Positions 10,955 to 30,292 of a DNA stretch of 36,733 bases are shown one piece after another. How positions within the stretch are numbered: position 1 is the stretch's first letter; each line of letters opens with the position of its first letter. Position numbers and translations under genes: made by a program. This DNA comes from Myxococcota bacterium (GTDB lineage: Bacteria > Myxococcota_C > UBA6777): the NCBI GenBank assembly GCA_023150835.1, contig JAKLKB010000059.1, forward strand, positions 1-36,733, given 5' to 3'. Below the pieces are notes generated by a model, which saw only the letters and a program-made list of their open reading frames with translations, was not told the DNA's origin and searched no databases.

Positions 10955-12523
10955 CTATATCCCCTCACGATGTTTTGCAGCGTTATTTCGGCGGATCTTT
11001 TTGGCGCGCTGGGTCCAACGCTCTGCGCGATCGAAGTCGCCTGTTTGGTGCAACAACGCTGCGTGATTTTCCAAGATCCCCGCTACATCGAGATGATCAC
11101 GACCGAAGACTTTTTCGGCAACAGAAAGCGCTCGTTGATAAGCTTGTTCAGCTTCTCCGTATTGTCCGTTGGTTGTGCATATCCCACCGAGGTTGTTGAG
11201 GATCGCGGGAATCGACGGATGTTGGGGGTGAGCCGCATCAAGAGAACGCAGCGCCAAACGATACAGCGCTCCTGCCTGATCCAGACGCCCTTGGGCGTGG
11301 TAGATCGACGCAAGATTGTTGCGGAGTACCGACACATCGGGATGCGTGTCTCCCTTGATCGCCTGCTGCCACTCTAAAGCCTCGATGTATGCGGCTTCCG
11401 CTTTCTCTGCTTGGTCCGTGTGGCGGTAAGCATCCCCCAATGCAGCAAGCCAGCCGCCGATCGCTTCTTTGTCAGCCTCCAACAGATCCTTACGCAGCCT
11501 TGCGATGGCTTCTTCGTACAACGGGATCGCCTCGGCCTGTTTGCCCTCTGCTTGGAACCAAGCCCCAAGACGAGACAGATCTCGCGCAAAGCCCGATTCG
11601 ACGGTGTGTTGGCCTTGTGTCAAGTGCGCGGTACTTTCTCTCCAAAGCCTCAAGGCTTGTTCAAGCGCAACACGCGCTTCTTGCTTTTTGTTGGTTTGGC
11701 GAGACAGCAACGCGCTTTGTAAAGAAAAAGCCTCGGCACGATCTCGCAGCACCGTAGGTTCGGAAGAATCAGGCAGAAGCAACAACGGTTCAAGCATCTG
11801 CAACGCTGTTTCGTCTTGGTCTTGCAACGCCAACAGATCGGCGATTTCGAGACGGATCGTGTGGGCCTGTTTTGACTCGGAATGCTCGGCGTGGGCTTCC
11901 ATCACACGCAACGCCTCTTCAAAGTACACGACGTTCCCTCGATCTCCTCTTCCCACCAAGAGCGGAACTTCCATCACACGCAACGCCTCTTCAAAGTACA
12001 CGACCGCACGTTGAGGTTGATCGAGACGCAGCGATATCCGCCCCAACAAGACCTTGGTTCGAGCGCCCTCCATCGCAGACGCCGATGGAGACGACGATTG
12101 GATCGCCATCGCCCGCAGCGCGAGCGCCTCGGCTTCTCGAAAAGCATGGCCTTCAAAAGCCAAAGCCGCACTCAAGCTGTGCAGCTCCGCCGATTCAAGA
12201 CTCTGTTCGCCATATCGAGCCTCCGCGATCCACAAGGCTTGTTTGGCGGCTTGCCGCGCTTGTTCGATCTGCCCCTTGCGTCGGTACAGATCGATCGCAA
12301 AGCGCCAGATCTGACCCACACGCACACCACCCTCCCCATAGCGCCGCACCGCTTCGTTCAAGGCTTCTTGAAGATGGCGCTCTGCGGTCTCCAGATCTCC
12401 GCTGTCTGCTTCGCGTTGCGCAGCCCCCAACATCACCCGCCAACGGTAAACCCATAACACCCATCCCATCGAAAAAAACAACACCAACGCTCCAACAGCA
12501 CTCCCGAACAACCACCATCCCAT
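10955..12523 (-). CDS. Membrane-anchored TPR protein
   Basis: N-terminal TM helix; kinesin-light-chain-type TPRs (HPDVSVLRNNLASIY..GRLDQA; ILNNLG..GQYGEAE). Confidence 0.88.
   Translation of the reverse strand: MGWWLFGSAVGALVLFFSMGWVLWVYRWRVMLGAAQREADSGDLETAERHLQEALNEAVRRYGEGGVRVGQIWRFAIDLYRRKGQIEQARQAAKQALWIAEARYGEQSLESAELHSLSAALAFEGHAFREAEALALRAMAIQSSSPSASAMEGARTKVLLGRISLRLDQPQRAVVYFEEALRVMEVPLLVGRGDRGNVVYFEEALRVMEAHAEHSESKQAHTIRLEIADLLALQDQDETALQMLEPLLLLPDSSEPTVLRDRAEAFSLQSALLSRQTNKKQEARVALEQALRLWRESTAHLTQGQHTVESGFARDLSRLGAWFQAEGKQAEAIPLYEEAIARLRKDLLEADKEAIGGWLAALGDAYRHTDQAEKAEAAYIEALEWQQAIKGDTHPDVSVLRNNLASIYHAQGRLDQAGALYRLALRSLDAAHPQHPSIPAILNNLGGICTTNGQYGEAEQAYQRALSVAEKVFGRDHLDVAGILENHAALLHQTGDFDRAERWTQRAKKIRRNNAAKHREGI
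11897..12004. repeat. 36 bp host duplication flanking a 36 bp CRISPR-repeat-like insert
   Basis: 11897-11932 is identical to 11969-12004. The insert at 11933-11968 is GTTCCCTCGATCTCCTCTTCCCACCAAGAGCGGAAC. Confidence 0.9.
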
Positions 12524-12552
12524 GCAGATCCCCTTCGTTCTTGTGTGTGCTT

Positions 12553-12673
12553 TGACTCCCAAGAGGCCGCGCCTGCTCTGACGCCCAAGAGGCCGCACCT
12601 CATCGGGCCTTCGCTGCGATCAATCGGCCATTTGTGTTGCAGTGCATCCTTCGGCTCCCAAGATGCCGCACCT
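12553..12673. repeat. Three short direct repeats in a divergent promoter region
   Basis: cccaaga(g/t)gccgc(g/a)cct near 12558, 12584 and 12657. Confidence 0.7.
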
Positions 12674-21623: not shown

Positions 21624-22709
21624 ATGACCGTCGATGTACGCAAAGAAGCCATCCAACAATACCTCGAACAAGCCTTTGAAGAACCCGTCACCCTCGAAGG
21701 GATCGGCCCGATCGGAGACTTGAGCGAACAAGGGATCAAGGGATTTGGTTATGGTAAGCCGCTGTTGTTGCGTTATCGGCGGGGTAAAGATATCGAAGAG
21801 GCCGTTCTTTCGGTGATGAAAGGAGATGCTTATGGCCACCAATTTTTTTGGGATCGCGCCGCTGTCTTGCTTTTTCAATACGCCACCGAAGCCAATATGG
21901 AGAAGCATGTCCGTCCCAAAGGCATCGGATACATCGACGAGACAGGAAAGATGATCCCAGTTCGTCGCCCTCAAGAGTTTTTTATCTTGCATGAAAAGCT
22001 CGAAGGGTACGACTATTTCAAAGATCTCGTCCGCATCCAAAAAGGCGACTATCGCAGCACAGATCGGCGACTGGTCGAAGACTTTGCGCGGTGGTTGGCC
22101 CGCGTCCATGCCCACAAACACACCGCACCCGATCTTTACCATCGCCGAATCCGCGAGCTGATCGGCAGTTCGGAGTGCATCTACGGCCTGATCGACGGTT
22201 ATCCCCATCCTTACGAGGACTTTGCTCCTAAACGGTTCCAAGCGCTCGAACATACCTTGGTGGATTGGCGTTGGCGTTTGCGCGGGTATCCGCATCGTTT
22301 GGCTGCGGTACATGGCGACTTTCATCCTTGGAATGTGCTGGTCACCGAAGAAGGGGCGTTTATGACGCTGGATCGCAGCCGTGGCGAATGGGGCGAGCCT
22401 GCCGACGATATCGCCACGATGACCGCCAATTATCTGCTGTTCGGACTCTCCGATGCCTCGACGCTCAAGGGGCCTTTTTGGGAGATGTATCTTGCTTTTT
22501 GGGAGACGTATCTCGAAGCGACGCAAGATCGCGAGATCTGCGAGGTGATCGCCCCCTTTTATGTCTTTCGTGGCCTTGTGATCGCCTCGCCGCAGTGGTA
22601 TCCCACGCATCCTCCCGCCCTGCGCCGAAGCCTCTTGCATTTTCTCGAAGCTGTCCTCCAAGAGTCACACTTCGATTACCGCGAGATCAACCGCTACCTC
22701 AAAGGCTGA
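21624..22709 (+). CDS. APH/choline-kinase-like phosphotransferase
   Basis: HGDFHPWNVL and LDRSRGEWGEPADD motifs; AAGGAG RBS. Confidence 0.88.
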   Translation: MTVDVRKEAIQQYLEQAFEEPVTLEGIGPIGDLSEQGIKGFGYGKPLLLRYRRGKDIEEAVLSVMKGDAYGHQFFWDRAAVLLFQYATEANMEKHVRPKGIGYIDETGKMIPVRRPQEFFILHEKLEGYDYFKDLVRIQKGDYRSTDRRLVEDFARWLARVHAHKHTAPDLYHRRIRELIGSSECIYGLIDGYPHPYEDFAPKRFQALEHTLVDWRWRLRGYPHRLAAVHGDFHPWNVLVTEEGAFMTLDRSRGEWGEPADDIATMTANYLLFGLSDASTLKGPFWEMYLAFWETYLEATQDREICEVIAPFYVFRGLVIASPQWYPTHPPALRRSLLHFLEAVLQESHFDYREINRYLKG

Positions 22710-22811
22710 GACGGTGGGACTCGCGCTGCGGCTTCGTCCTTTGGAATCGGCTATCTACGTCGATACATGGAACATCAAAGGCTGAGACGAGGGAACTCGC
22801 GCTGCGGCCCC
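22698..22811. repeat. Imperfect 38 bp duplication flanking a 38 bp insert
   Basis: 22698-22735 vs 22774-22811 match at 32/38. The insert is GTCCTTTGGAATCGGCTATCTACGTCGATACATGGAAC. Confidence 0.75.
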
Positions 22812-22851: not shown

Positions 22852-23508
22852 ATGACTGCACACAAAACGAACAACCAGACACCAAAAAACACCGAAGGAT
22901 GGGCGCTGTGGTTTGTGGGTCTGCCGGGTTCTGGCAAAAGCACCATCGCTCGCTGCGTCTTTGAAGCGCTACATCCGCAGGAGCCGCGACTTGTGTTGTT
23001 GCAGATGGATGCGTGGCGCAAGCTGCACTTGCCAGACAGCGGCTACACCCGAGAAGAGCGCGAATCTGCGTACCGCGCATTTGCCCAGATGGCCGCCGAG
23101 CGCGTCCATGCGGGCGATCGCCTCTTGCTTGATGGAACCGCCTACCGCCAAACGATGCGCCGATATGCACGTGACAAGATCGTTCGATTTGCCGAGATCT
23201 ACGTGACGTGTCCATTGGAGATCGCGATGCAGCGGGAGTCATCACGCCCTCAAGGTCTTGTGATGGCCGAGATGTACCGCAAGGCCCTCTGGCGCAAACA
23301 AACAGGACAGACGGTCCCTGATCTGGGCGAAGTCATCGGCGTGGATATCGAATTTGAGATCGATCCTTGCGCCGAATGTGTCCTTGATAGCAGTCAACTC
23401 TCCCCACAACAGGCTTGTGATCGCATCGTGGCTTGGCTCGAACAAAGCGGTTGGCTGTCTGATGCTGTTGAAAACGTCCGTCAATCCGTCCAAAAGGGTT
23501 TCATCTGA
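22852..23508 (+). CDS. Adenylyl-sulfate-kinase-like P-loop kinase
   Basis: WFVGLPGSGKSTIA, YTREERE, EIYVTCPLEIAMQRE. Confidence 0.85.
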   Translation: MTAHKTNNQTPKNTEGWALWFVGLPGSGKSTIARCVFEALHPQEPRLVLLQMDAWRKLHLPDSGYTREERESAYRAFAQMAAERVHAGDRLLLDGTAYRQTMRRYARDKIVRFAEIYVTCPLEIAMQRESSRPQGLVMAEMYRKALWRKQTGQTVPDLGEVIGVDIEFEIDPCAECVLDSSQLSPQQACDRIVAWLEQSGWLSDAVENVRQSVQKGFI

Positions 23509-23600
23509 CCACAAGCACCGAGGCTTCCCTCTGTTCTTTTCGTTTTGAAGGGTTTCACATGACCGCAACCACCGAGGCTTCCTTCTCGTCTTTTCGTTTT
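23494..23600. repeat. Imperfect 54 bp tandem duplication across a gene junction
   Basis: aagggtttca..tgacc.caa.caccgaggcttcc.tct..tcttttcgtttt at 23494 and 23548. Confidence 0.85.
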
Positions 23601-29782: not shown

Positions 29783-30214
29783 GTGAACAAAACACAAAAA
29801 AATCGCGCCATCTTGATCGAAAAACTCAACCAGATCTTGGCTTGGGAGAAACGCGCCGAAGCGATGTATTCGCACTACGCCGCGTATGTGAAAGGACTCC
29901 ATCGCTTGCACCTCAAGCCCTTCTTTGAAGGCGAAGCCAACGAATCCACCCTCCATGCTCGCCAAGTCCGCGAAGCCATCGTCCACCTTGGCGGTGTCGC
30001 CATCACCGAACAAGATCCCACCGCGATCAAGCACACCACCAACTACCGCGAGATGTTGGCCGAAGCCTTGGAAACCGAAAAGCGCGCTGGAGCGGGATAC
30101 GCAGGACTGCTCGAACACATCGATGAAAATGACGAACTCTACGATGTGTTGCAACAGATCCACTTCGCCGAAGAACGCAGCCTGATCGAACTCAACCACC
30201 TCCTCGACGGCTGA
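29783..30214 (+). CDS. Ferritin-like (bacterioferritin-type) protein
   Basis: LNQILAWE..Y..ESTLHA..IVHLGG..LETEKRA..Y..EE four-helix pattern; GTG start after GAAAGG. Confidence 0.85.
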   Translation: MNKTQKNRAILIEKLNQILAWEKRAEAMYSHYAAYVKGLHRLHLKPFFEGEANESTLHARQVREAIVHLGGVAITEQDPTAIKHTTNYREMLAEALETEKRAGAGYAGLLEHIDENDELYDVLQQIHFAEERSLIELNHLLDG

Positions 30215-30292
30215 TTTTACGATGTGTTGCAATCGCTCCACTTCGCCGAAGAACGCAGCCTGATCGAACTCAACCACCTCCTCGACGGCTGA
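30140..30292 (+). repeat. Tandem duplication of the last 75 bp of the ferritin-like gene
   Basis: 30140-30214 vs 30218-30292 match at 72/75; period 78. Confidence 0.95.

Follow-up and report, generated by a model that had tools for sequence, protein, structure and literature searches.

A gene for a TPR protein in a Myxococcota genome carries a 35-nt insert between two identical 37-nt copies of its own sequence, and we read this X-Y-X unit as the probable scar (at a probability of roughly 80%) of an off-target, non-canonical spacer integration by Cas1-Cas2. The insertion together with its empty site, its geometry, the genome-wide family of similar units and the four adaptation modules of the genome are established here by direct observation. 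We propose that the unit is without a function of its own and belongs to a set of about 150 similar scars in the same genome. The DNA analysed, referred to below as the window, is a stretch of 36,733 nucleotides, in which we assigned the following features:

10955..12598, minus strand: host gene of the unit, coding for a 547-aa TPR protein with a 24-codon in-frame insertion (from the ORF and Pfam)
11896..11932: X1, first copy of the duplicated 37-nt target, native TPR-gene sequence, identical to 11968-12004
11933..11967: Y, spacer-sized insert of 35 nt, absent from the orthologue of the closest relative (G001) and from a conspecific contig of run X8
11968..12004: X2, second copy of the 37-nt target (target-site duplication), identical to X1
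22699..22808: second, older candidate unit, from a mismatch-tolerant scan and sequence inspection

Positions 11896-11932 and 11968-12004 form a perfect 37-nt direct repeat with an offset of 72 nt, and the 35 nt between the repeats (11933-11967) show no relation to the flanking 37-mers. The first-pass annotation had described a unit of 36/36/36. Its perfect duplication around an unrelated insert stands, but the true split is 37/35/37, the shared C at 11968 having been counted with the insert; insert and shared C together give the 36-mer GTTCC...GGAAC. The host ORF matches TPR_12 of Pfam (E=2.7e-44) and related families. The unit adds 24 codons to this ORF without a change of frame, and VVYFEEALRVME is encoded twice in it. 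The insert has no stop codon in the frame of the host gene, and the ORF 10955..12598 is open throughout, in agreement with the earlier statement that a net gain of 72 bp keeps the TPR gene in frame.

The unit is a true and recent insertion. We compared the genome studied (G000) with its closest relative in the comparison, which belongs to the same genus (G001), and with a more distant congener (G002); the amino-acid identities of their TPR orthologues are 89-92% and 52-53%, respectively. On the DNA level, the orthologue of G001 contains the 37-mer once, letter for letter, and is exactly 72 nt shorter than the gene of G000. According to HSP coordinates, the orthologues of both G001 and G002 are without the 24 residues, and the comparison with insert-free TPR orthologues that had been suggested from the sequence alone was thus borne out. 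Contigs from four public runs were also compared with window positions 11500-12400. In run X8, an unrelated soil metagenome from another study, a contig joins 11895 to 11968 and skips 72 nt, with no other letter differing over 396 + 96 nt; the 37 nt fit either side of the junction. Two runs come from the probable source sample, and in both X-Y-X is spanned by independent k-mer contigs (11903-11997 and 11896-11997) that are as deep as the flanks; the 37-mer forms a separate unitig there, with a depth about 2.5 times that of the flanks. The contigs of run X5 end at 11929 and restart at 11976, and neither allele is displayed there. Because X-Y-X is covered at flank depth by contigs of the source sample and the empty allele is present in run X8, the unit is not the assembly artefact that the first-pass annotation had allowed for, and the insertion is polymorphic within the species.

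The insert had originally been taken for a CRISPR repeat that lies "inside out" between two host segments. The insert is no such repeat. None of the four resident arrays has a repeat that matches it, the genome contains no further copy of it either with up to 3 mismatches or by short-word BLAST, and it was not found in 60 relatives (up to 3 mismatches). This is the uniqueness that had itself been named as an argument against the repeat interpretation. Exact scans of genome, metagenome and viral contig collections, which diverged copies would escape, gave no match to the whole insert, and neither its 5' half in the genome contigs nor its 3' half in the metagenome contigs was matched exactly. 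In the source sample, the unitig that contains Y is present at single-copy depth; thus, no array with this repeat is abundant in that sample. The best alignment of the insert is with the 38-nt repeat of the array on contig C138, the common start being GTTCCC.CGATCT in the first 13 nt (GTTCCCCCCGATCT), and the likeness has a p value of about 0.001 against shuffles of the 36-mer. However, when 70 inserts were compared with the 4 resident repeats (280 comparisons), the best global alignment of this insert was tied with those of two other inserts. Since its likeness to a repeat is no better than that of other inserts, we dropped it in spite of the shuffle p value. Accordingly, the GTTCC...GGAAC ends are present as long as the C at 11968 is counted, but the resemblance to a repeat that was read into them did not hold. 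The proposed hairpin did not stand out either, because the RNA fold of the insert has z scores of -1.66 and -0.10 against 200 shuffles and its foldability ranks 31 of 86 among inserts; taken together, the inserts are only marginally more foldable than array spacers (p=0.05). Single occurrence, chance-level similarity to repeats and an ordinary fold all speak against the insert as a CRISPR repeat.

The duplicated DNA had likewise been considered as a possible spacer. The 37-mer has no other copy in the genome and hence is not a spacer of any resident array, and of the 192 array spacers, not one matches another part of the genome over its full length. It had also been suggested that a lone repeat in an mRNA could create a Cas6 cleavage site. 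As neither X nor Y is a resident repeat, such a site is not expected in the TPR transcript.

The TPR unit is not alone in the genome. We took a census of exact direct repeats at short distance over the whole genome and called a unit clean when its middle was unlike both the repeat and the flanks; units whose insert resembled X or the flanks were left out by this definition. The filter was passed by 113 of 973 repeat pairs. X lengths concentrate sharply at 37-39, with few longer values, and Y lengths peak at 33-40. Among perfect clean units with a period of 50-110 (n=93), 59 have a period of 70-78 and 29 a period of 60-68, and 5 fall elsewhere. When mismatches were allowed in X, by which older units are included, 183 units were obtained on 95 contigs (94 at 70-78, 62 at 60-68 and 27 elsewhere; periods of 45-120). 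The search for other X-Y-X units that the first-pass annotation had recommended thus returned 156 units in two period bands, and the remaining periods between 45 and 120 together hold 27. The Y sequences, whose clustering had been recommended along with it, are all mutually different, and so are all X sequences. Because the inserts are all different, the earlier suggestion of an undescribed minimal mobile element fails. A MITE was rejected on the same ground, the insert of the TPR unit being unique, those of the other units all different, and an element family lacking. A tandem duplication or minisatellite was also discarded, as nothing in the empty allele corresponds to the 35-nt insert.

Empty sites were found for other members of the family as well. 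Seven units were tested against G001, of which four have a clear empty site there (the TPR unit, C87:126149, C115:80613 and C120:2585) and one a probable one (C14:14245); C136:67447 has no match in G001 or G002, and the G001 match of C103:7235 ends at the unit. A gene on C120 contains a young and an older unit side by side, each of 66 nt, and G001 lacks both. Paralogous empty sites were detected for 19 of 70 units, which are located in repeated elements: their reconstructed empty site can be aligned with other copies of the element without a gap, in seven cases at 91-99% identity. At C111:65370-65555, three repeats and two inserts form a mini-array of ordinary DNA, which shows repeated hits at one ectopic site. 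In about nine cases, the unit seems to have lengthened a long ORF by 22-26 codons without a frameshift.

The genome itself is represented by a metagenome bin of 7.56 Mb (239 contigs, 93% complete, repeat-rich). It contains four CRISPR arrays, whose repeats are 38, 37, 37 and 36 nt long and whose spacers are mostly 34-38 nt. Compared with this geometry, the 37 + 35 nt of the TPR unit correspond to a resident repeat length for X and a spacer length for Y, and the main band of the census lies where the repeat-plus-spacer unit of the resident arrays does (70-76 nt). Four Cas1 genes exceed the family cut-off, and they belong to four modules:

Module 1: type I-C with Cas1
Module 2: type I-MYXAN with a Cas4-Cas1 fusion
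Module 3: I-B-like with Cas1 and Cas4
Module 4: a Cas1-Cas2 pair beside a fusion of a group-II-like reverse transcriptase with PrimPol, and a CRISPR-associated PrimPol

Only two of the Cas1 genes have a Cas2-sized neighbour that matched a family, and in both cases it is Cas2.

For most inserts, the genome contains no matching sequence. The main class includes four (36, 39, 36 and 37 nt) that copy another locus of the genome from end to end with 1-2 mismatches, and the matches stop exactly at the insert boundaries; these four look like captured protospacers. In addition, the insert of C69:5503 contains a partial repeat of the C149 array. The flanks of the protospacers gave no pattern that would indicate a PAM, in a set of five cases only and with uncertain orientation. 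As for the targets, all four resident repeats end in AC, and 15 of 44 main-class units have the same two letters at the end of X on one strand, compared with 4.6 expected (p=2e-5); for the second class the count is 7 of 26, and for other units 7 of 43. Oriented units have a G-rich upstream flank and a C-rich downstream flank. In particular, the TPR unit reads TGGG/CTTCC...CGAC (the slash marking the junction), compared with CTGGG/GTTCC...AAAC at the leader-repeat junction of the 38-nt array of C138. Over the whole length, the likeness of X to the resident repeats is at chance level. Multi-copy palindromic elements hold about one third of the targets, which fits the known liking of the integrase for structured DNA.

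We infer that Cas1-Cas2 was the catalyst of these events. In place of a leader-proximal array repeat, an integrase loaded with a prespacer of about 35 bp would have taken the TPR gene as its target and attacked the two strands at positions separated by 37 bp. Gap filling or repair synthesis would then have duplicated the 37-bp target on either side of the insert, as in the normal duplication of a repeat. The gene would have remained open after this event and the allele would have persisted because 72 nt are divisible by three and the insert has no in-frame stop. Ectopic Cas1-Cas2 integration with duplication of a repeat-length target was one of three models offered by the first-pass annotation, and it is the one that the empty sites, the geometry and the genome-wide family favor. 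The model in which a repeat-spacer circle reintegrated at its protospacer loses its basis with an insert that is not a repeat and an X that is not a spacer.

We also asked how far units and Cas1 go together in the two congeners. Cas1 was not found in G001 (86% complete) or in G002 (64% complete). The same scan over 800 kb of G002 gave 3 clean units, 2 of them in the 70-78 band and both of atypical shape, where about 16 band units are predicted from the density in G000. In G001, 727 kb contained 11 units in the two bands, 9 of which are imperfect. Three or more of these also occur in G000, and two or more are specific to G001, judged by the empty sites in G000. G001 therefore failed as a control without Cas1, since it carries units of its own, and the absence of Cas1 and the absence of units do not cleanly track each other. 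Taken together, the low unit count of G002 supports the link to CRISPR, and G001 gives no clean answer.

Several of these observations count against off-target integration by Cas1-Cas2, and some of them would suit an undescribed insertion process unrelated to CRISPR, in which a unit of fixed size (about 65 or 72 nt) consists of a short copied piece and a compensating duplication and is produced, for example, by template switching of the RT/PrimPol or of a repair polymerase. The period of the units is better defined than its parts, because the lengths of X and Y are negatively correlated (r = -0.45 and -0.53), and we estimate that chance extension of the repeats accounts for only about half of this anticorrelation. 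No resident array has repeats of the length that the 60-68 band (X of about 27-33 nt) would call for, since arrays with repeats of about 30 nt were not found in the 93%-complete assembly. The self-derived inserts differ by 1-2 bases from their sources, as an error-prone polymerase would leave them, whereas the X copies beside them are perfect. Moreover, G001 has units of its own although Cas1 was not found in that 86%-complete genome. A further difficulty for off-target integration is that 18 of the 59 perfect units of the main band have periods of 76-78, which are rare in arrays. Nevertheless, we consider the process unrelated to CRISPR unlikely. The X mode of 37-39 with its short right tail is the one that a fixed ruler of 36-38 nt plus chance extension would produce, the main band equals the unit length of the resident arrays, and the AC-end motif is the same as that of the repeat ends. 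A copying process would also leave most inserts without a genomic source, and duplications of 37 nt come from no known template-switch process.

In a rescued form of the inside-out unit, the 36-mer would be the repeat of an array that is foreign or was not sampled, and the 37-mer would be a self-targeting spacer, with a repeat-spacer circle or a repeat-length fragment set free by the integrase re-entering the protospacer. The GTTCC/GGAAC ends and the likeness of the first 13 nt to the C138 repeat, with its value against shuffles of the 36-mer, speak for it, the nearly equal lengths of repeats and spacers mean that a repeat-length fragment could act as a prespacer, and the C69:5503 insert does contain part of a resident repeat. 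We nevertheless judge it very improbable, as the best alignment is tied with two others among 280, no other copy exists in the genome or the 60 relatives and no exact match in the public collections scanned, the Y unitig has single-copy depth, and the fold is no better than that of shuffles. In addition, X has no other copy in the genome and is thus not a spacer, and the other 150-odd units carry unrelated inserts. The origin of the bin, a repeat-rich metagenome assembly of 239 contigs, and the 5-nt inverted ends of the insert might raise the suspicion of an assembly artefact, or of a miniature transposon whose target duplication is very long. Either is hardly credible. K-mer contigs from two runs extend through the unit at the depth of its flanks, and the empty allele occurs elsewhere; the insert is single-copy and the other units have unrelated inserts, hence no element family. 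Casposons and other Cas1-family or transposase systems likewise produce direct target duplications by staggered integration. The target duplications of casposons are about 14-15 bp and flank a large gene-carrying element, and we know of no transposon family that makes 37-bp duplications around a 35-bp cargo.

A wider reading, which we put forward tentatively, takes ectopic integration in this lineage for more than a rare accident. It would have been a sustained mutational force, with at least 150 scars of varied ages in two size classes. The array belonging to the integrase of the 60-68 class would lie outside the assembly, sites that were hit again would have become small arrays, and some units would have entered genes in frame. 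The mismatches in the inserts would reflect prespacers made by an error-prone RT/PrimPol or DNA from diverged relatives.

Off-target integration is an event type known from experiments. According to papers that cite them, Nivala, Shipman and Church (2018) reported that over-produced E. coli type I-E Cas1-Cas2 integrates off target and generates "neo-CRISPR" loci. In those loci, a spacer-sized insert lies between two copies of repeat-length chromosomal DNA and repeated integration can build a small array, properties shared by the units reported here; the target there resembles repeat or leader features, to which the AC ends of X in the present genome may correspond. Unlike those induced events, the present ones are natural, amount to about 150 in one genome and fall into two size classes, and they occur in a Myxococcota genome with repeats of 36-38 nt, some of them in frame inside genes. 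For Pyrococcus furiosus, PMC6698737 reports in-vitro off-target integration by purified Cas1-Cas2 in a plasmid assay. The sites used are non-CRISPR sites that share sequence features of the repeat, with a spacing set by the integrase, as may be the case here; in contrast to the plasmid assay, the scars studied here are fixed in a genome, and relatives have the empty-site alleles. For Streptococcus thermophilus, PMC7999890 describes that spacers are acquired ectopically within arrays, the integrase likewise using a site other than the leader-proximal repeat. Those events take place at true repeats inside an array, whereas the targets in the present genome are unrelated genes and intergenic DNA.

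Off-target integration has been shown mainly with over-produced enzymes in E. coli and in vitro. According to the preprint 10.1101/148544, it is unclear if such events are common in nature, and only circumstantial evidence exists in two other species. In the openly accessible main texts searched, we found no account of many natural off-target integrations in one genome. Read as such an integration, the single TPR unit is a natural member of a known event type, the mechanism of which is known from experiments, and the genome-wide scale is new. This scale is the reason for a follow-up. The genome is a natural data set of about 150 events with empty-site alleles in a sister species and in the conspecific population, so target logos, duplication lengths and insert sources could be derived from it for four co-resident modules without an experiment. 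The units would also represent a cost or by-product of CRISPR immunity, in the form of scars in genes, some of them in-frame protein insertions, and of some sites that resemble new arrays. For annotation, two-repeat "questionable CRISPRs" of this kind are better read as scars than as arrays.

The window also contains the second, older candidate unit at 22699..22808. Its X is 34 nt long with 3 mismatches between the copies (22699-22732 and 22775-22808), its Y is 42 nt and its period is 76, and it is located at the 3' end of an ORF.

A second unit of the same kind as that in the TPR gene, in which target DNA is duplicated around an unrelated insert, was found in the window, and related units were found elsewhere in the source genome (G000; contigs are denoted by C-numbers). 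These loci, together with two duplications in the window and an adaptation module, are as follows.

Window 22699-22808: second unit, older than the main one; 34-nt repeat with 3 mismatches, 42-nt insert, period (repeat plus insert) of 76
Window 30140-30292: tandem duplication, 78 nt x 2.0, 96% matches
Window 23494-23600: tandem duplication, 54 nt x 2.0, 86% matches
C69:5503-5599: unit in which a 33-nt repeat flanks a 31-nt insert
C111:65370-65555: ordinary DNA present in three copies (~31-38 nt), with two unrelated inserts lying between them; periods of 79 and 76
C120:2477-2682 (L021:188-393): two neighbouring 66-nt units in the same long ORF
C183:40475-47762 (L013:7476-14763): adaptation module encoding a reverse transcriptase-PrimPol fusion, a CRISPR-associated PrimPol, Cas1, and Cas2

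The second unit in the window is positioned at the 3' end of an ORF. The other two window loci are plain tandem duplications and do not have the X-Y-X arrangement (repeat, insert, repeat).

The origin of an insert was indicated by the C69 unit. Its insert includes the final 19 nt of the type I-C array repeat with one mismatch, and thus at least one insert was taken from a CRISPR array. Two other loci carry more than one insert. The C111 locus looks like an ectopic site that was struck twice, that is, a nascent array. At the C120 locus, the repeats are perfect in one unit and 85% identical in the other, and the orthologue in G001, the congener that is the closest relative compared, has neither unit; the older of the two inserts has a 92% match at another place in G001. 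A palindromic element, comprising GGCAGCCCCCTGTGGCTGCC and adjoining sequence, gave about 500-600 matches across G000 by short-query BLAST; it is often the target of such units and now and then their insert.

We also compared the main unit with contigs of four public sequencing runs, including X1 and X4. A further contig of the sample behind these two runs, 151 nt long in X1 and 1367 nt long in X4, matched window 11957-11992, 36 nt that cross the insert/repeat junction, with 3 differences, and had no likeness to the window on either side; its version of these 36 nt was not found in G000. This match could be a homologous TPR motif from another organism with a chance extension, or a copy of the junction.

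In the C183 adaptation module, the reverse transcriptase-PrimPol fusion, the CRISPR-associated PrimPol, and Cas1 consist of 880, 815, and 370 aa, respectively. The module is located upstream of a 42-repeat array, which reaches past the contig end.
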